44,632 bases of DNA from a virus: the UHGV virus genome UHGV-0179607, one strand, 5' to 3'. The translations under genes were made by a program, and so were the position numbers. This document shows positions 10,243 to 44,632 of the stretch, piece after piece. The notes under the pieces are model-generated. The model saw only the letters and a list, made by a program, of their open reading frames with translations. It searched no databases and was not told the origin of the DNA. How positions within the stretch are numbered: the stretch's first letter is position 1; each line of letters begins with the position of its first letter.

Positions 10243-10270
10243 GTATTACACCGCTCAACCAGGATTGCAA
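10243..10270 (-). promoter_or_regulatory. sigma70-like promoter for the lipoprotein/RBP pair
   Basis: On the minus strand TTGCAA - 16 bp - TAATAC, about 35 nt upstream of the lipoprotein start; overlaps a copy of the TTGGTTGCA motif. Confidence 0.35.
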
Positions 10271-10290: not shown

Positions 10291-12702
10291 ATGGCAGCGG
10301 GTACGCTATCCGTAACGAACAATAGCAAGGCGGTAGTAGGGGTCGGCACCACGTTTACCGCGTTTAAAGCTGGCGACTTCTTAACGTTGGTGGTAGGGCA
10401 AGTCCCATACACCGTGGCAATCGCGTCCATTGAAAGCGCAACCGCGCTTACGCTGGTGCTGCCGTTCGACGGCCCAACGGCAACCGGCCTTGCGTGGGAC
10501 GGCGTTAAGCGCGATACCATGTCACTGGCAACGATGGGCGTTACCGTACAGGCACAGAAAGCGTTGCGATTGATGATCGCAGATGAAAACAACTGGCGCG
10601 CTATCTTCGGCGAAGAAGAAGAAATCTCGGTCACGCTACCGAACGGTCAAGTGGTGCAGGGTATGTCGTGGGGCTACCTGTCAAAACTGCTTAAAGACGT
10701 AGATCCTGTTGAATTGCAGGCTATCGCGGACCAGACCATCACGGCTAAAAACCAGGCGCAAGGATTCCGTAACGAGGCGGAAGGCTTCAAGAACACCGCG
10801 AATACCGCGAAAGATGCCGCAGTAGCTGCGAAGACAGCGGCGGAGACAGCTAAGTCGCAGGCCGTAACCGCTAAAACGGCAGCCGAGTCCGCAAAGACTG
10901 CCGCGGAGACAGCTAAGTCGCAGGCCGTAACCGCTAAAGACCAGGCCAAAGGATTTCGCGACGAGGCTGAAGGCTTCGCCAACAGCGCGGACGCGTCAAA
11001 GAAAGTGCCGTATGCTGGCGTAACACTACCGGCACCGACTGGAGTAAGGGATATGCTCAAGCGGTTGCGCGATTCGGTTAAGGGCGGCTTCTGGCGCGTC
11101 GATGATATTGCGCAGTTTCCATCTGGCGAGATGACCCCTTTCAGATACGGACCTGGCGTATGTGGCGGCGCGGGGGATACATTCTTTGCAATCAACGTTG
11201 ACTGGCAAACCTCGCGCGTTAAAGTTTTCTCGGGAAACAACAACGCGATCAACGGTGCGTCGGGAAGTGTTAGCGCTATCGAACTGGCTAAGCTGGGGGC
11301 TAACGGGGACGTGGAGATCGGGGACGGCGGGACCGGTGCATCGAACGACCAGGGCGCGAGAAAAAACCTTCAGGCAATGCACGAGCGACAGGCATCGTTG
11401 AATACTGAAGATCTTAACGTCCTTCAGGGTGATAAGGCTGGGTTTTATTATCAGTCCATGTCGGCTAACGCCACCCCAGAGCGTAACTATCCTACTAACA
11501 TGGCGGGTTGTTTACTGGTGCAAAGATCCGGTGCTAACGACCCGAAGAGTTGCATACAGACGTACGCTACCTACGGCGACGGTCGGCGATGGATTCGATG
11601 GTTAGGCAACGCGGCTACGGGTACCTGGTCGCAGTGGTACGAGATGTTTAATGCTGGGTCATCTCCAGAATTTAACGCATACGTAAGAGCTAAAAGCGGC
11701 GATCGAATCGTCGAAATGTTTGTAGGCGGCATTGATGTTGGCGTTCGCAACCGCACGTCGCAGAAAGTGCTACAGCTTCGTGACAACGGCGAACTGGCGT
11801 ATGACAACAAGCTGATCGCATATAACGGACTTGAAGCCAGCGGCACATTTGCTATGCGAATTCCTAGTATGAAGGTAATAACAGCAAATGGTGGCTTCCG
11901 GATCGACGGAACAGTGTCAACAAACAACCAACCACTGCACGTAACAGGGTACAACTCAGCAGGCACGCGTCTTTGGTTTTTAGGGAAGGACACCGGGACG
12001 AGCGCGCTATTCCTGAACGATATAACGTCTTCTAAAGTTGAACTGATCACGGACGGCGTTGTGCTTGGTACGAAGGATTTCGCGGGAAAAGCATACGTTC
12101 AGGCCGCAAGTTTAGAGATCGACCGCCCGAGTGGCAAGTATTTCAAAATGCTGAACGACGGCAACTCGTCACACCCCGCAACCTTCAAATTATGGGGTAA
12201 CGGGTCTGATAGGGCGTCGGTTATTGAGTGGGGTTTTGATAACGGCCCTGGGTGGGTGTTTTACGCGCAATATAATAGCAACGGCACGCGCCAGATGAAC
12301 GTTAACGGAACGGTAAACTGTACGACGGTAAACCAGTCGTCTGACCGCGAGTTGAAGGATAACATCAAGCCGATCGAGAACGCCCGCGCGGGCCTTGCTA
12401 AGATGGGTGGCTATACCTACACCCTGAAGAAAGACGGTATGCCGTACGCCGGGGTGATTGCACAGGAAGTAATGGACGTTGTGCCAGAAGCGGTGAGCAC
12501 GTTTGAGGACTACGAATACCTTGCGGGTCCAACGCAAGACGGCGAGGAACTGGTAGGGCGTCAGCGCTTCTTCCAGGTGGACTACGGCGCTATTGCTGCA
12601 TACGCGGTGCAAGTGTGTAAAGAGCAGGAAGAGGAACTGGTGTCTTTGCGTAGCGAACTGGAGGAATTGAAAGCTGCCGTAGCGGCACTGACTAAAGCAT
12701 AA
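10291..12702 (+). CDS. tail fibre protein with C-terminal intramolecular chaperone (peptidase S74-like) domain
   Basis: 803 aa; C-terminal region SDRELKDNIKPIENARAGLAKMGGYTYTLKKDG...AGVIAQEVMDVVPEAV matches the self-cleaving chaperone domain of endosialidase and T5 L-shaped tail fibre type proteins; internal tandem repeats; strong RBS. Confidence 0.8.
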   Translation: MAAGTLSVTNNSKAVVGVGTTFTAFKAGDFLTLVVGQVPYTVAIASIESATALTLVLPFDGPTATGLAWDGVKRDTMSLATMGVTVQAQKALRLMIADENNWRAIFGEEEEISVTLPNGQVVQGMSWGYLSKLLKDVDPVELQAIADQTITAKNQAQGFRNEAEGFKNTANTAKDAAVAAKTAAETAKSQAVTAKTAAESAKTAAETAKSQAVTAKDQAKGFRDEAEGFANSADASKKVPYAGVTLPAPTGVRDMLKRLRDSVKGGFWRVDDIAQFPSGEMTPFRYGPGVCGGAGDTFFAINVDWQTSRVKVFSGNNNAINGASGSVSAIELAKLGANGDVEIGDGGTGASNDQGARKNLQAMHERQASLNTEDLNVLQGDKAGFYYQSMSANATPERNYPTNMAGCLLVQRSGANDPKSCIQTYATYGDGRRWIRWLGNAATGTWSQWYEMFNAGSSPEFNAYVRAKSGDRIVEMFVGGIDVGVRNRTSQKVLQLRDNGELAYDNKLIAYNGLEASGTFAMRIPSMKVITANGGFRIDGTVSTNNQPLHVTGYNSAGTRLWFLGKDTGTSALFLNDITSSKVELITDGVVLGTKDFAGKAYVQAASLEIDRPSGKYFKMLNDGNSSHPATFKLWGNGSDRASVIEWGFDNGPGWVFYAQYNSNGTRQMNVNGTVNCTTVNQSSDRELKDNIKPIENARAGLAKMGGYTYTLKKDGMPYAGVIAQEVMDVVPEAVSTFEDYEYLAGPTQDGEELVGRQRFFQVDYGAIAAYAVQVCKEQEEELVSLRSELEELKAAVAALTKA
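10840..10938 (+). repeat. 36-bp perfect tandem-type repeat inside the tail fibre gene
   Basis: GCGGAGACAGCTAAGTCGCAGGCCGTAACCGCTAAA occurs at 10840-10875 and 10903-10938, encoding repeated AETAKSQAVTAK units. Confidence 0.7.
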
Positions 12703-13920: not shown

Positions 13921-13942
13921 GCAACCAACCTATTGGTTGCAA
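13921..13942. promoter_or_regulatory. perfect palindromic operator-like site TGCAACCAA-CCTA-TTGGTTGCA
   Basis: Both half-sites are the 9-bp motif found in most promoter regions of this genome; located upstream of the gene starting at 13868. Confidence 0.4.
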
Positions 13943-24791: not shown

Positions 24792-25310
24792 TTAATCTTC
24801 CAGTTCGAAATAAGTTTCGACGATTTCTTTAAGATCTTTGTGGAAGTCTTCGACGTCGTCATCTTCCAGCTTGGCGATTGATTTGATCTCGAACGATTCC
24901 AGCAGGTCGTCGAATTCGTCGTTGGCATCGTCGTCGTCACCACCAGCGATAATAGCGGCATACTGTTTGATCTCGTCGCGCATCTCTGCCAGCGGATCGG
25001 CATCTTTCTTGCCTTTGCCTTTCGCCGGTGCTTTTTTACCCTTCGCCGGTTTTTCGTCTTCGGCTTCTTCATCGTCGTCATCTTCTACGACTTCTTTTTT
25101 GGCCTTACCTTTAGCCGGTGCTTTTTTGGTTTTCGCCGGTTTTTCGTCTTCGGTTTCATCGTCGTCATCTTCTACGACTTCTTTTTTGGCCTTAGACGGC
25201 TTCTTGTCTCCCGGCTTACCAACGGCAGCGCCAACGGTTTCATAATGCTTAGCGATGGTTTCCAGTGCTACTACGCCGCGAGTAATCAGGTTTACGATTT
25301 GTTCAAACAT
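24792..25310 (-). CDS. acidic repeat protein, first gene of the leftward early operon
   Basis: 172 aa; two tandem ~20-aa repeats KKEVVEDDDDE..EDEKPAK.KKAPAKGK and a strongly acidic C-terminus; encoded by ~60-bp DNA tandem repeats at about 25030-25200; GGAG SD. Confidence 0.5.
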   Translation of the reverse strand: MFEQIVNLITRGVVALETIAKHYETVGAAVGKPGDKKPSKAKKEVVEDDDDETEDEKPAKTKKAPAKGKAKKEVVEDDDDEEAEDEKPAKGKKAPAKGKGKKDADPLAEMRDEIKQYAAIIAGGDDDDANDEFDDLLESFEIKSIAKLEDDDVEDFHKDLKEIVETYFELED

Positions 25311-25509: not shown

Positions 25510-25538
25510 TATTAGATTGGTTGCAGAAGGGAGTCAAC
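25510..25538 (-). promoter_or_regulatory. leftward early promoter (sigma70-like)
   Basis: Minus strand TTGACT - 17 bp - TAATAT; the spacer carries GCAACCAA; about 190 nt upstream of the first early gene. Confidence 0.45.
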
Positions 25539-25717: not shown

Positions 25718-26047
25718 ATGAATGTAAACGACGCAATCGAAATGTTAACGAAGACTGTTAGCAGTGAAACAAGCCGGTCATGGGCTTATACCGATGCCGT
25801 TGGGGCGGTGCTGTTTGAGGTCGAGCGCCTGCGCAGTGTAGAAAAAGAATTACGCGCCAGGCTGGAATTGCTCAACGGTACGGCGGCGAGCAAGCTGCAA
25901 AAACACAATGAGGAAATGGAAGAATACAAAAAGCAGGTTATCCGTTTGCGCGCCGAGGGAAAGTCATGGGCGATGATCGCGGAGTTGACAGGGATTAACC
26001 AGAGCACCGTGCGCTCCTGGGTACGCAATAACAAAACTTCGAAGTAA
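25718..26047 (+). CDS. helix-turn-helix DNA-binding protein
   Basis: 109 aa; C-terminal KSWAMIAELTGINQSTVRSWV is a typical HTH; first gene of the rightward operon. Confidence 0.5.
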   Translation: MNVNDAIEMLTKTVSSETSRSWAYTDAVGAVLFEVERLRSVEKELRARLELLNGTAASKLQKHNEEMEEYKKQVIRLRAEGKSWAMIAELTGINQSTVRSWVRNNKTSK

Positions 26048-26057
26048 GGCCACGGCA

Positions 26058-28322
26058 ATGAGCTTAATTAAATTCGCTGTTACAAGACCCGCTAAAAAAG
26101 GCGAAAAAGCCAGGGCGGAAAACTTCCAGATGACCACCGATGAATTTTTCGAATTTATCAAAGATGCGAAAGAAATCTCCTCGGTGCATATCAACAAGAC
26201 GGAAGATAAAGCCGAGTATGCGCGCCGCAAGCGTAAGGCCGACGGCATCGTGGCGTATACCAGTGACGGATTGCGTCGTAAGACCAGTGCGGTGGACCGC
26301 TCGATCCTGTTCTTCGATATTGACCGTACCGACACCCGCACCCTACGCCGCTGCCGTAAGGCGTTCATTGACGCGGGGCTGGAACACGTATTTCACACCA
26401 CAACCGGCGACCGTCACCCACTGAAAGGCGGCACGCGTTGCGCTCGATTCCTGGTGCTCACTGACAAGCCTGTACCGGCTGAAGACCTGGGCCGCGTCCA
26501 GTATGCACTATTACACCAACTGGGTCTGTCAGATGTGGACTTCGACGATTGCACGAAAGACACAAACCGCCTGATGTACCTGCCACACCAGCAGTCTGTT
26601 ATTAAGTGCCACTACGGCAAGCGCGCCCGCGTCCGTCGTCTGCTTCGCCTGGCGGATAAGTTGGGCGCGGAAAAAGAGGAAGTACGCCGCGAGCTTACCC
26701 AGGGCGACGACGCAGTGGCAGACGGCATTCTGGACTGGTGCTTCCAGGCAGGATTCGAGGAGTTATCTTCCGGGCGGGGCTATGAAGTGCCGTGCCCTAA
26801 CGAACATCTACACAGCGGCGAAGGGTCCACCGCTATTATGGTTAAGGACGGCGAGATCCGTTTCAAGTGCATGCACACAGGCAACGAGTGTTGCTCGGAA
26901 CTGAATAGACACCAGCACCTGGCGCTGCGTCTTATCGGGATCCCGGACCACCTGAACGTCGAGCCACACAATATGTCCCGTAAGCAAATCGCCGCCATCC
27001 TTCCGGGGCTGGACGACGAGGAAGTCGAATCCTTATATGAACATATTGTTGATGCGGTTGGCGACGGCGAAGAATACGGCGTGTGCACCGATGCGGATCT
27101 GGATAACGAGCCGGTTGCGCTGTTCAGTAAGCACGACCCGATTATCGAGGGGTTGATTAACTTTAAATCGACCTGGTACATGGCGGGTGAGTCGAATATA
27201 GGTAAGTCTTTCTACGTGCTGGGCCAGATGGGCGCGGTTGCTGCCGGTATTCCGTTTGGCGGTGCGAAGGTCGTCCAGTCTCATTGCTTCTATTTCGACG
27301 CGGAAGGTGGCGAAGCCTCTAACCAGCGTAAAGAAGCATTGCAGATTAAATATGAGCACGACCTGGACAAGCTGCACATTATCGATCTGCAGTCACGCGG
27401 CTGGGATATCACCAGCAAATCGGGCTTGCGCGAAGTTATCAGCTTTATCAACCGCACCGCTAACGGCGAACCGGTTGGCCTGGTGGCGTTCGACTCACTC
27501 AACCAGACTGTTGCGTTGCGGTCCGCTGATGCTAAACCGTTCGACGAGAACAACGCCAGCGATATGGGTGAAGTGGTCAAAGCGCTGAAGGCCATCGCGG
27601 AAAATACAGGTGGTAGTGCGGGCGTCATCCACCACCCGGCTAAAGGTGCAAACGGCAGCAGAACGCCACGCGGGTCCGGCGCGCTGCATGGTGCTGTCGA
27701 TTCTGCGTTCTTCCTGGAACAGCCGGACGACAACCAGCCCGGACAATTGAACCTGTATCACGAAAAGTCACGTAACGGCATCAAGCAAGCGCCGCGCGGC
27801 TTCGTCCTGCTCAAGTGCAAGGTGAAGGTGGATCTCCGCAAGTCAGAAGCGTTCGAGGCGCACCAGTCCACCAGCACCGGGCCAGACTTCGGCGACGTGG
27901 TTGCCGGATGGGACGTCAAGCCGATTGCCTCCACGCCACGCGACGAGACTCTCTACCTCGTACCGGTTGCCCTGGCACCTTTCGCTATTGAACAGGCGAA
28001 GGCGGCGGGCAAGGCCGCGGTTAAGGAAGAGAACACCGCCGGACCGCGCAACGAAAAAGAGAAAGTGCTTTATGCGGCACTGGAAAAACTGATGGAAGAT
28101 AACCCGGACCATACTGGATTCAGTAAATCGGCAATCGTCCGCCAGGCGGGACTCGCAAAAGGGGGCACTTCGACGAAGGCAATCGACGATATGGTGGAGC
28201 GCGGGGTAATAGGTTTTTATACAGATCCGCACACCGGGGCCATCTATGGGTCTTCTAATTTGGTCATCAAATCGGATATCCCTATCACGCTTTCCGCGAC
28301 CGATGACGATTTAAAAGATTAA
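26058..28322 (+). CDS. primase-polymerase (AEP-like) / P-loop replicative helicase fusion protein
   Basis: N-terminal ILFFDIDRTD resembles the AEP/prim-pol DxD motif; central Cys/His cluster (CPNEHLHSG...CMHTGNECC); P-loop MAGESNIGKSF of RecA/DnaB-like (AAA_25-type) helicases; 754 aa. Confidence 0.55.
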   Translation: MSLIKFAVTRPAKKGEKARAENFQMTTDEFFEFIKDAKEISSVHINKTEDKAEYARRKRKADGIVAYTSDGLRRKTSAVDRSILFFDIDRTDTRTLRRCRKAFIDAGLEHVFHTTTGDRHPLKGGTRCARFLVLTDKPVPAEDLGRVQYALLHQLGLSDVDFDDCTKDTNRLMYLPHQQSVIKCHYGKRARVRRLLRLADKLGAEKEEVRRELTQGDDAVADGILDWCFQAGFEELSSGRGYEVPCPNEHLHSGEGSTAIMVKDGEIRFKCMHTGNECCSELNRHQHLALRLIGIPDHLNVEPHNMSRKQIAAILPGLDDEEVESLYEHIVDAVGDGEEYGVCTDADLDNEPVALFSKHDPIIEGLINFKSTWYMAGESNIGKSFYVLGQMGAVAAGIPFGGAKVVQSHCFYFDAEGGEASNQRKEALQIKYEHDLDKLHIIDLQSRGWDITSKSGLREVISFINRTANGEPVGLVAFDSLNQTVALRSADAKPFDENNASDMGEVVKALKAIAENTGGSAGVIHHPAKGANGSRTPRGSGALHGAVDSAFFLEQPDDNQPGQLNLYHEKSRNGIKQAPRGFVLLKCKVKVDLRKSEAFEAHQSTSTGPDFGDVVAGWDVKPIASTPRDETLYLVPVALAPFAIEQAKAAGKAAVKEENTAGPRNEKEKVLYAALEKLMEDNPDHTGFSKSAIVRQAGLAKGGTSTKAIDDMVERGVIGFYTDPHTGAIYGSSNLVIKSDIPITLSATDDDLKD

Positions 28323-28397
28323 ATTCTGCGCGCATTGGTTGCCGATATGGGAATTCCCATATCGGTAGATGATTAAATTCTGCGCGCATTGGTTGCC
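28317..28397. repeat. 27-bp perfect direct repeat flanking a 24-bp perfect palindrome
   Basis: GATTAAATTCTGCGCGCATTGGTTGCC at 28317-28343 and 28371-28397; between them CCGATATGGGAATTCCCATATCGG (28342-28365); copy 1 contains the primase stop codon. Confidence 0.7.
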
Positions 28398-28482
28398 ATT
28401 TTGCGTGCTTTTAGTCGGTCGTATTGGTTGCCGTGTAGTGTAAATATAGTGAATAGTTATGCAATAAAACTGCATAAAGTAA

Positions 28483-28639
28483 GCGGGACAAAAAGCGGGA
28501 CAGACCAGGGGCGGGACAAAGCGGGACAGCACCCCTGTCCCGCCCCGGATGACGCGGCCTGGCGAGGAGCGGGACAGCGGGACAGCACCCCAGTCTTTCA
28601 GACTAGACGGGGGGTCTGGCACCCCCCTCGTCTGAGACT
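28483..28639. repeat. iteron array (GCGGGACA x6-7, one inverted) plus ~48-bp conserved-stem hairpin; copy 1 of a duplicated element
   Basis: GCGGGACA at 28483, 28495, 28511, 28521, 28569, 28578 and inverted at 28536; large imperfect inverted repeat 28591-28640; same architecture at the window ends. Confidence 0.7.
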
Positions 28640-28799
28640 GCATAAAATCCAGGATTGCATAATACACGGCAACAAGATGCGAATTGCGGTCGTCGATGAA
28701 CTAGGCAACCAATGCGAGTTGCAGAATGGTGGGTGAAAAATGCAGTTTGCAGTTGCAGCAGATAGCGATCAACTTTTTCATACGCGTGATTAATATTGG

Positions 28800-28828
28800 T
28801 TGCACCCACTCCAGCACCCTGCTATATT
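28800..28828 (+). promoter_or_regulatory. sigma70-like promoter with conserved leader
   Basis: TTGCAC - 17 bp - TATATT followed by GGTTGCACACCAACA; the 22-mer 28822-28843 recurs inverted at 38936-38957. Confidence 0.4.
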
Positions 28829-28858
28829 GGTTGCACACCAACATGAGGACTGAACAAA

Positions 28859-29335
28859 ATGAAATTTCCAGTAATCATCAAAGACGGTAAATCAACTATC
28901 ACTTTCACCGGCAACGACCACGGCACTTACGAGAGCGGCGCGGCTTGCATGTCCACCCTGGAAGATATGATGATTCGTGTTAATTCCGGTAAAGCCTCAA
29001 TTATTACCCCCCTCGCGGAGAGTACCAAAATGAAAGCATTAATCTGGAATTACACAATGGCGGTGGCGAAGCTGTATGAAGCGAAGCACACAGACGGCAA
29101 CGCAGACGACGCGCGCCAGGTTGTCATCCTGGCCCAGCAGGGAATCAGGCACGCGTTCGACGATATGTTTGCCAGCCTGGACGAACTGGAACCGCTGCGC
29201 GTGGCAATCTGCGAATATGCGATGGCTTTTGCCCGCGAGCGCCTGGCGTATCGCTTCGGGATCGGCGAGACGGCAGTGACAAACGTCGCCCGGATTAAAG
29301 CCCAGCGCGAGCTATTCGACCAGCTTGCGAAATAA
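28859..29335 (+). CDS. hypothetical protein
   Basis: 158 aa; GAGGA SD; no motif recognised. Confidence 0.45.
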   Translation: MKFPVIIKDGKSTITFTGNDHGTYESGAACMSTLEDMMIRVNSGKASIITPLAESTKMKALIWNYTMAVAKLYEAKHTDGNADDARQVVILAQQGIRHAFDDMFASLDELEPLRVAICEYAMAFARERLAYRFGIGETAVTNVARIKAQRELFDQLAK

Positions 29336-44542: not shown

Positions 44543-44632
44543 AGCGGGACAGGCGGGGCGTCCCGTTTTGTCCCGCACCTCTAAAACTGCATATTTACTC
44601 ACCACAATTGCATAAATTAAAAGCGGGACAGG
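44543..44632. repeat. iteron-containing region at the window end, continuing at 1-70 with the conserved hairpin
   Basis: GCGGGACAG at 44543-44551 and 44623-44631, inverted copy at 44569-44576; the window then starts with CGGGACAG GCGGGACA followed by a copy of the 28591-28640 hairpin. Confidence 0.65.

Follow-up and report, generated by a model that had tools for sequence, protein, structure and literature searches.

We analyzed the UHGV virus genome UHGV-0179607 (one stretch of 44,632 nucleotides, below called the window) and found that a recombinationally active minisatellite lies between the stop codon of its primase-helicase gene and its putative replication origin, an array of iterons. 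The unit of this minisatellite, a 54-bp module, consists of a 27-bp repeat (the 27-mer) and a 27-bp spacer, and a perfect palindrome begins where the two meet. Judged by sequence comparison, the palindrome is a very widespread and strongly covarying DNA element, native to KilA-N/BstA-like defense genes. We give a substantial, though less than even, chance to the reading that the palindrome of the Dhillonviruses, the phages to which the window belongs, is a captured DNA decoy against a BstA-like defense.

The assignment of the window to the Dhillonviruses (HK578/JL1-like siphophages of Escherichia coli) was made with a 3.4-kb query taken around the site. This query matched 159 phage records at 89–97% identity, nearly all of them Escherichia or Shigella Dhillonviruses.

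Repeats and palindrome in the window

A sequence-only reading of this DNA had described two perfect 27-bp direct repeats, the first of them holding the primase stop codon, with a perfect palindrome between them. All these features were found. The sequence GATTAAATTCTGCGCGCATTGGTTGCC occurs exactly at 28317-28343 (copy 1) and 28371-28397 (copy 2) on the plus strand, with the starts 54 bp apart. Copy 1 holds the last codons of the primase-helicase gene (26058-28322, plus strand, 754 aa), its TAA stop codon (28320-28322) and the first of the boxes described below. Similarity between the copies runs five nucleotides further to the left with two mismatches (32 nt at 94% identity, 28312-28343 versus 28366-28397).

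The palindrome CCGATATGGGAATTCCCATATCGG (24 bp, 28342-28365) overlaps the final two bases of copy 1 and can be drawn either with 12-bp arms and no loop or with a 10-bp stem and an AATT loop. Its 22-bp core CGATATGGGRATYCCCATATCG (28343-28364) is identical to a palindrome within KilA-N/BstA-like prophage genes. The unique spacer of the module, GATATGGGAATTCCCATATCGGTAGAT (28344-28370, plus strand), is missing from single-copy relatives, as seen in alignments with JL1, SSL-2009a and UHP65. The window holds 1.5 units of the module, and the distance from the palindrome to the iterons is 115 bp. Two details of the sequence-only reading had to be corrected. Both repeats end in the exact motif ATTGGTTGC (28334-28342 and 28388-28396) rather than in a variant of it, and the iteron array starts 84 bp and not about 90 bp downstream (from copy 2 to the first iteron at 28481).

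Both features exceed chance. The 24-bp palindrome, the longest of the window, compares to a mean of 15.4 bp and at most 20 bp for the longest perfect palindrome of each of 30 first-order Markov simulations, and the 27-bp repeat to a mean of 12 bp and at most 17 bp for the longest local direct repeat simulated. A second copy of the palindrome was not found within the window with up to three mismatches allowed. As DNA, the palindrome folds into a hairpin of -10.5 kcal/mol (z -5.7), which begins 20 nt past the stop codon, and the 121-nt region around it folds to -44.9 kcal/mol (z -4.6).

Copy number variation among Dhillonviruses

Alignment of the junction in related phages showed that its length changes in steps of 54 bp: matches to a 331-base query (28150-28480) span 277, 331 or 385 bp. 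About half of the relatives have a single 27-mer and no palindrome, with a segment of 91 bp compared to 145 bp in the window. The number of 27-mers per relative was 0, 1, 2, 3, 5 or 6. By alignment, there is no 27-mer in EP23 (L009), one 27-mer and no palindrome in JL1, SSL-2009a, UHP65 and others, two 27-mers with a short spacer and no palindrome in LM40P1, two 27-mers with one palindrome in the window, B2 and many others, and three 27-mers with two palindromes in PNS1. SM_S24 has five 27-mers and three palindromes in a higher-order duplication, while Teewinot has six 27-mers with a period of 53 bp (5.1 units by Tandem Repeats Finder; the same program made no report for the 1.5-unit array of the window). 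Copy 2 is the one kept in all relatives having at least one copy.

The presence of the module was scored with a palindrome-specific 60-base query, and RefSeq/GenBank duplicates were counted in both the numerator and the denominator. On this count, 85 of the 157 junction-matching records have the palindrome module and 72 do not; the palindrome was not found in the outgroups either. We observed that the module states are interspersed on a neighbor-joining tree of the flanks, where the nearest neighbor of the window, UHP65, has the one-copy form with identical flanks. Variants private to one genome are common to its copies. For example, both 27-mer copies of one relative (L012) read ATTGGTCGCC, and in PNS1 units 1 and 2 are identical while unit 3 is different. 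This is concerted evolution. The length steps, the interspersed states and the shared private variants thus show the locus to be a 54-bp minisatellite with active recombination. The module is dispensable for viability, since 72 of the 157 related records and the outgroups are without it.

Like other minisatellites (variable number tandem repeats), this one has head-to-tail units of 53-54 bp, present in 0-6 copies among close relatives and homogenized within a genome. It differs from them in its unit, which is no anonymous sequence: a conserved box of the origin flanks is combined here with a palindrome of foreign origin and wide conservation.

An insertion with duplicated flanks, as the sequence-only reading put it, is a fair description of the window, with many relatives having one 27-mer and no palindrome. 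As the footprint of a small insertion, the structure agrees with these single-copy relatives but not with copy numbers of 0-6, nor with the palindromes of other genomes, which have no duplicated flanks. Single-copy relatives had also been named as a sign of a neutral indel. Such relatives exist and the element is dispensable; still, the identity of the palindrome with a widespread conserved element argues against a simple neutral indel.

In Teewinot (L087:800-1090) most units are hybrid, with the left arm of the palindrome replaced by ATTTTGGG, a sequence normally found 3' of the last 27-mer, and 12 nt between two TTGG repeats are deleted from the first unit. Both features could have come from recombination at TGGG microhomology or could be assembly artefacts.

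The palindrome within KilA-N genes

Viral contigs of IMG/VR were scanned with the pattern ATATGGGRATYCCCATATCG, and the 22-mer was also sought in bacterial genome contigs. The exact 20-22-mer was present in more than 120 IMG/VR contigs (at least, among the matches listed) with G+C contents of 27–66%. The 22-mer was present in 80 bacterial contigs from Nostocales, Saprospiraceae, Bacillota, Alpha-, Beta- and Gammaproteobacteria, spirochaetes, Dehalococcoidia and others. All palindrome-bearing contigs together cover a G+C range of 27–70%.

Many of these sites lie inside KilA-N genes (Pfam KilA-N, E-value 8e-24), about 170 nt into the gene, where the palindrome encodes the peptide DMGIPIS. Genes of Saprospiraceae and Aureispira have the same 22-mer at the homologous place in another frame, read as RYGNSHI. 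Since the same 22-mer is read in two frames, the constraint acts on the nucleic acid and not on the peptide. These Saprospiraceae/Aureispira KilA-N-like genes (L209, L217, L219, L232, L234, L262, L282) have a different C-terminal region, the PADLOC candidate PDC-S22, and no BstA domain.

Because the matches of the pattern scan had been selected by the palindrome itself, a further sample of KilA-N genes was collected with peptide patterns from outside the palindrome (QGTW.., GYINAT.. and a C-terminal motif). Among the 73 distinct versions of the segment in this sample, all nine inner pairs were formed in 48 and eight pairs in 17, i.e., at least eight in 65 of 73. The arms are nonetheless diverse (CGATATGGG, CGAAACGGG, CGATGCGGG, CGATATCGG, CGTTACGGG, GTCTGCGGG, GTCCATGGG and more), and the encoded peptide varies with them (DMGIPIS, ETGIPVS, DAGIPAS, DIGIPIS, VTGIPVT, SAGIPAD). 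The covariation score was 0.431 compared to 0.149 +/- 0.012 in shuffled data (none of 500 shuffles reached it), slid controls stayed at or below 0.107, and cells with both sides changed numbered 144 versus 56. In one case, a synonymous proline change, CCC to CCG, was paired with a change from Met to Ile. Mismatches were G.T in 5 cases and A.C in 8. The lack of a G.T excess over A.C points to a DNA feature and speaks against a hairpin in the sense-strand RNA, a reading that was set aside for this reason.

By these sequence comparisons, the palindrome of the KilA-N family is maintained at the DNA level by compensatory changes. KilA-N homologs lacking the palindrome are equal in length and also have the xxGIPxx peptide. 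A tblastn search found no KilA-N gene in the window, and only the 12-14 residues encoded by the palindrome matched. On the same kind of comparison, the palindrome did not arise in the Dhillonvirus lineage.

Full-text searches, made with four versions of the sequence and with KilA-N plus palindrome, found no published description of the element. No Rfam family was reported at the palindrome, either in the window (27800-29200, E-value mode) or in eight palindrome-bearing loci. Elsewhere in these loci, the sok/hok model matched about 50 nt away in two lambdoid cases and C4/isrK RNA in another. A described RNA family was ruled out by these scans, and the idea of a c4-antisense/ant system was dropped likewise. 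We also considered that the palindrome might encode the recognition helix of the KilA-N domain. The KilA-N profile matches structures of yeast Mbp1, in which the helix-turn-helix presumably lies upstream of the palindrome-encoded segment; the idea stays speculative.

Multiple palindromes were seen in a few contigs. Two or three different palindromes of the GGGAATTCCC family stand in tandem in a 244-kb contig with a G+C content of 27% (L467:1960-2025) and in L188:13850-13920, for example ATGGGAATTCCCAT followed by CGAAACGGGAATTCCCGTTTCG. Another contig (L466) has a 34-bp extended palindrome of alternating GGGAATTCCC cores.

The palindrome outside of KilA-N genes

Among the matches listed, 121 viral sites could be divided into 31 in KilA-N genes and 90 outside of them. 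The 90 extragenic sites fall into at least 14 unrelated flank contexts, none with a flanking duplication. Two large classes are lambdoid, one next to hok/sok and the other at the 3' end of DUF551 genes. In the non-KilA contexts no KilA-N homology was found past the palindrome. The similarity is confined to the palindrome; therefore, the extragenic copies are not longer remnants of the gene.

The hok-adjacent class is collinear with the E. coli prophage AR_0067, in which hok is followed by a KilA-N gene: the two agree around hok and again downstream of the gene. In the hok-adjacent lambdoid prophages both halves of the gene are gone, and about 36 bp with the palindrome are left. A second arm type (CGAAACGGG...) is likewise divided between KilA-N genes and other contexts. 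No neighbor gene common to all palindrome contexts was found. Two contexts (L104, L124) had no BLAST match in the phage collection, and a third (L125) had matches to lambdoid portal genes only.

Small cassettes and palindromic elements at mosaic junctions, such as T4-type PeSL cassettes and REP and RPE elements, offer a comparison. Here as there, a short conserved hairpin stands at module boundaries and genome homology stops at its edges. Unlike them, the palindrome has no associated promoter, is found in one copy per genome, and has a coding 'home' copy with compensatory evolution.

Relation to the BstA defense

The proteins encoded by palindrome-bearing KilA-N genes were compared with a known defense protein. 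When six of them were searched with the PADLOC model of BstA, four matched in their C-terminal domains (E-values 2e-55, 3e-20, 2e-17 and 6e-16), over about positions 142-288 of the 292 in the model. Such a domain is present in the enterobacterial and in many other palindrome-bearing KilA-N proteins, and was 38% identical to BstA of Salmonella phage BTP1 (E-value 1e-25). In E. coli ML35 the KilA-N gene (protein WP_000191544.1) lies 32 bp downstream of a LexA-family prophage repressor, as described for bstA, and a CI-like repressor adjoins the palindrome-bearing gene in at least 18 IMG/VR loci. This adjacency is not universal; the AR_0067 gene (protein WP_000200358.1) is in the nin region beside hok. 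A close homolog was found in 139 of 5426 complete E. coli genomes.

BstA, an abortive-infection (Abi) protein of prophages, blocks phage DNA replication and co-localizes with replicating phage DNA; the determinants of sensitivity to it are reported as unknown (Owen et al. 2021, PMC8585504). A short DNA element in the bstA locus, aba, neutralizes the cognate BstA and acts as DNA; through it the encoding prophage escapes its own defense, and in BTP1 the mutant aba-mut1 had a lower titre after induction, by self-targeting (PMC8585504). It works in trans on a high-copy plasmid, while a single chromosomal copy fails; it is specific to its BstA variant, and it protects phage P22 upon transfer (PMC8585504). 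The aba of BTP1 is 63 bp long, non-palindromic, spans the start codon at the 5' end of bstA and has terminal CCCGCC direct repeats, while the aba elements of the E. coli and Klebsiella BstA variants have not been mapped (PMC8585504).

The palindrome resembles aba in its location. Its native copies lie inside genes which combine a KilA-N N-terminal domain with a BstA C-terminal domain, and some of these donor genes also share the position downstream of a repressor; the Dhillonvirus copy lies outside any such gene. Action as DNA would be consistent with the two reading frames, with the lack of a G.T excess and with the retention of the palindrome in non-coding contexts.

Possible roles of the palindrome in Dhillonviruses

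In the decoy reading, the palindrome would be the cognate DNA ligand of KilA-N/BstA-like proteins and would act like aba. The Dhillonviruses, which carry no KilA-N gene, would have captured this site as a decoy against that defense and placed it beside the origin, on DNA whose amplification begins with the earliest rounds of replication. The observed polymorphism of 0-6 copies would result from a later gain or loss of modules, by homologous recombination or by replication slippage between the 27-mers. RNA anti-CRISPRs would be a functional parallel only. Phages reportedly carry solitary CRISPR repeats, and in both systems a phage copy of the defense system's own nucleic-acid ligand would subvert the defense. 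There, however, the copy is a transcribed RNA directed at Cas proteins, whereas here the evidence points to DNA and an Abi-type KilA-N protein.

A wider form of this proposal, which we regard as somewhat unlikely, is that KilA-N genes encode the xxGIPxx peptide and the palindromic site of their own product in the same nucleotides, and that many phages have taken the 22-bp site as a portable antidote to KilA-N-based Abi systems, the BstA-like proteins among them. Any compensatory arm change would thereby modify both peptide and site, and cognate protein-site pairs would be produced. Virulent Dhillonviruses would put the site beside the origin and amplify it in tandem, and prophages which keep the site without the gene would be 'antidote-only' cheaters.

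Several points weigh against the decoy. It is drawn from sequence comparison and from the analogy with aba, and the mapped aba of BTP1 is a different, non-palindromic sequence without similarity to the palindrome; the longest string common to the two has 7 nt (CCATATC) and could easily occur by chance. The palindrome lies in the KilA-N-coding part of the gene, the BTP1 aba at the start codon. No palindrome with a stem of at least 7 bp was found at the equivalent site of BTP1 bstA, and the N-terminal domain of BTP1 BstA is only remotely KilA-N-like. For this reason we rejected filing the palindrome as an aba. Two of the six tested palindrome-bearing KilA-N proteins, from Saprospiraceae and cyanobacteria, have no BstA domain, so any link would be to the KilA-N domain and not to BstA as such.

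The Dhillonviruses themselves add to these points. The module is dispensable, as counted above. The left arm of the palindrome varies without compensation: GATATGGG was seen in 9 copies, GTTATGGG in 4, AATATGGG in 2, GGTATGGG in 1, ATTTTGGG in 3 and the truncated GCATTGGG in 1, so that symmetry is less protected here than in the genes, as in a decaying relic. The right arm CCCATATCG was invariant in 18 copies. Finally, the high copy numbers of Teewinot and SM_S24 come from single assemblies, in which errors could be present, and recombination can blur the flank tree.

Alternatively, the palindrome may be a neutral relic, i.e., a fragment of a KilA-N gene joined to the phage by illegitimate recombination and hitch-hiking, with no phage function, in a minisatellite that is unstable through slippage or unequal crossing-over. 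We find this doubtful, though its probability is by no means negligible. Isolates with zero and one copy show the module to be dispensable, the left arm decays uncompensated, and the KilA-N sequence that follows the palindrome (ATTAATTC) briefly resembles the beginning of the 27-mer (ATTAAATTC), which could have helped to form the joint. Direct repeats which flank a hairpin are a classical hotspot of deletion and duplication. Neutral drift, however, is hard to reconcile with a right arm and core that are invariant in 18 copies though the flanks differ by 4–8%, and with amplification of the module to several copies in at least three isolates. Further, nothing but the 22-24-bp palindrome is in common with the KilA-N genes, with no other remnant of the gene; the same minimal element was kept or acquired independently in at least 14 other contexts; and the collinear prophages keep the palindrome having lost both gene halves.

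It is improbable, in our estimate, that the palindrome is an expression or replication element of the phage itself, such as a 3'-end hairpin that stabilizes or terminates the primase-helicase transcript, an operator, or an accessory origin site. A terminator, one of the functions offered in the sequence-only reading, did not hold up: the sequence after the hairpin, TAGATGATTAAATTCTG, contains no T run, no plus-strand terminator was found in a scan of 28000-29000, and the hairpin is missing in 72 of 157 relatives as well as in the outgroups. A scan of the same interval gave no match to a sigma-70 promoter. The palindrome is unique in the genome and so is part of no operator set, its mismatches have no bias to G.U pairs, and its exact sequence is kept across phyla and in coding regions, which would be unexpected for a generic stabilizer hairpin. 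On the other side, the hairpin is stable and stands 20 nt past a stop codon, the 27-mers have the origin-flanking box, and some unrelated contigs have a sister palindrome that precedes a T run (for example L457) or adjoins a terminator.

The palindrome could also be a target or sensor site, at which KilA-N/BstA-like proteins bind invading DNA near the origin and block its replication; it would then be a liability that is repeatedly lost. BstA co-localizes with replicating phage DNA and blocks replication (PMC8585504), the palindrome stands 115 bp from the iterons, and about half of the relatives do not have it. Yet the site is inside the defense gene, which would turn the defense on its own prophage upon induction, the site is retained where prophages have lost the gene, and tandem amplification in the Dhillonviruses is hard to square with a liability. 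We consider this explanation quite improbable.

Least probable is a self-mobile miniature palindromic element that creates a target duplication. In its favor, perfect 27-bp direct repeats flank the palindrome here, the palindrome recurs in many unrelated places where the flanks change right at its ends, and two or three different family palindromes stand in tandem in two contigs (L467, L188). Against it, the other 14 contexts have no flanking duplication, there is usually one copy per genome, the KilA-N segment is no insertion (palindrome-free homologs agree in length and in the xxGIPxx peptide), the neighborhoods have no transposase in common, and a 27-bp duplication is not of transposon type, the target-site duplications known to us all being far shorter.

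The 27-mer box and the origin

The 9-mer ATTGGTTGC, with which both 27-mers end, occurs 14 times in the window versus 0.6 expected. Four occurrences around the origin share a longer form, CGYATTGGTTGCC, three of them direct to the left of the iterons and one inverted to the right. Boxes 1 and 2 (CGCATTGGTTGCC, 28331-28343 and 28385-28397, plus strand) are inside 27-mer copies 1 and 2, respectively. Box 3 (CGTATTGGTTGCC, 28420-28432, plus strand) was found in all Dhillonviruses examined, even in EP23 with no 27-mer. Box 4 (CGCATTGGTTGCC inverted, 28704-28716, minus strand) is on the far side of the iterons. In a distant relative with a primase end 66% identical (L021), one direct and two inverted AATTGGTTGCC boxes were found at the same place. 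The box set brackets the iterons in all relatives, with box 3 universal.

The iteron array itself, the putative replication origin (28481-28584, plus strand), consists of five direct AAGCGGGACA-type units with inverted GCGGGACA copies. The sequence GCGGGACA occurs 12 times in the window compared to 2.1 expected, and 7 of the 12 are within the array. On its 3' side lies a G+C-rich inverted repeat, cagtctttcagactagacggggggtctggcacccccctcgtctgagactg (28590-28641), which is conserved in distant relatives (L018, L021) and duplicated at the window ends.

From its sequence context, the 27-mer box most likely binds a protein of the phage that acts at the origin or at early promoters. One candidate for reading the ATTGGTTGC boxes is a 109-aa helix-turn-helix protein, whose gene immediately precedes that of the primase-helicase (25718-26047, plus strand; Pfam HTH_23 with E-value 2e-7, HTH_28, Sigma70_r4_2). 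The C-terminal part of the primase-helicase may be another candidate binder of the 27-mer box. The sequence-only reading had proposed a regulator binding site in this place. This proposal is partly upheld, with a different protein for each half of the module: the 27-mer has an origin-flanking box of the ATTGGTTGC family, and the palindrome appears ligand-like too, but for a foreign KilA-N/BstA-like family.

Iteron origins with accessory boxes are known from DnaA or IHF sites in plasmid oriV and from the ori/crr arrangement of phage P4. The CGYATTGGTTGCC boxes are similar in bracketing the iterons on both sides, in being variable in number and in being conserved in distant relatives. They differ in that CGYATTGGTTGCC fits no known host-factor consensus and that its 9-mer is also found at early-promoter-like sites throughout the genome.

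Outside of the origin, ATTGGTTGCA boxes were observed at 10267, 13921/13932, 15837/15854, 18784/18796, 25516, 28795/28826, 29533, 32256/32279 and 38945/38959. They are intergenic, promoter-like in position and face downstream genes, are often paired 12-31 bp apart, and form an inverted pair at 13921/13932. The box at 25516 lies upstream of the gene for the 109-aa helix-turn-helix protein. The two boxes at 28795-28834 (plus strand) have the form ATATTGGTTGCAC and precede the next gene (start 28859), with TATATT 17 nt after the first TTGCAC. A TATAnT was found exactly 17 nt after TTGCNN in 3 of 25 box cases, compared to a background of 0.8%. By their sequence and placement, the non-origin boxes probably serve a regulator of early genes as its operators or activator sites.

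Neighboring genes and other repeats

The primase-helicase gene was identified by Pfam AAA_25 (E-value 2e-19) and PHROG 3228 ('replicative helicase-primase'), and has the same annotation in relatives. The 109-aa protein had been annotated as 'transposase', an assignment which we discarded; by Pfam it is a helix-turn-helix protein only.

A second origin-like module runs across the window ends (44544-44632 and 1-75). Its GCGGGACA iterons are at 44544, 44569 (minus strand), 44623 and 9, and it has the G+C-rich inverted repeat described above together with boxes of the CTGCATAA type; about 78 bp of it are about 88% identical to 28568-28645. Should the window represent a complete genome in permuted form, about 16 kb would separate one iteron module from the other, which is reminiscent of the ori/crr pair of phage P4.

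Open reading frames (ORFs) of 115-118 aa at 28389-28736 (plus strand) and 28311-28667 (minus strand) span the repeats, the iterons and the G+C-rich hairpin, and several relatives have them annotated as hypothetical proteins. The repeat architecture and the indel polymorphism make it improbable that they are genes.

Exact direct repeats were also observed in two genes elsewhere. An ORF of unknown function (24792-25310, minus strand, PHROG 3127) has them within 25024-25200: 40 bp (25068/25155, with an 87-bp period), 22 bp (25042/25132) and 14 bp, resembling an in-frame tandem duplication. The tail-fiber gene, so annotated from relatives (ORF 10291-12702, plus strand), has a 36-bp exact direct repeat at 10840-10938 with a period of 63 bp, i.e., 21 codons.

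Significance

Regardless of its function, the copy number polymorphism is a practical strain marker for Dhillonviruses, and it calls for caution with assemblies of this region. The palindrome in KilA-N genes offers a clean case of selection at the DNA level overriding protein coding, as it would appear from compensation that alters amino acids and from the use of two frames.

To our knowledge, BstA is the only defense so far described with a DNA self-immunity determinant, and we know of one prophage only in which that element was mapped. If the palindrome is the counterpart of aba in the much larger canonical KilA-N family, it would provide a sequence-defined and easily synthesized ligand for the KilA-N domain. 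Virulent phages could then evade an Abi system by gaining 22 bp of DNA. The same reading, if true, would explain a hypervariable locus adjacent to the origin in a phage genus that is used for phage therapy and in phage collections.

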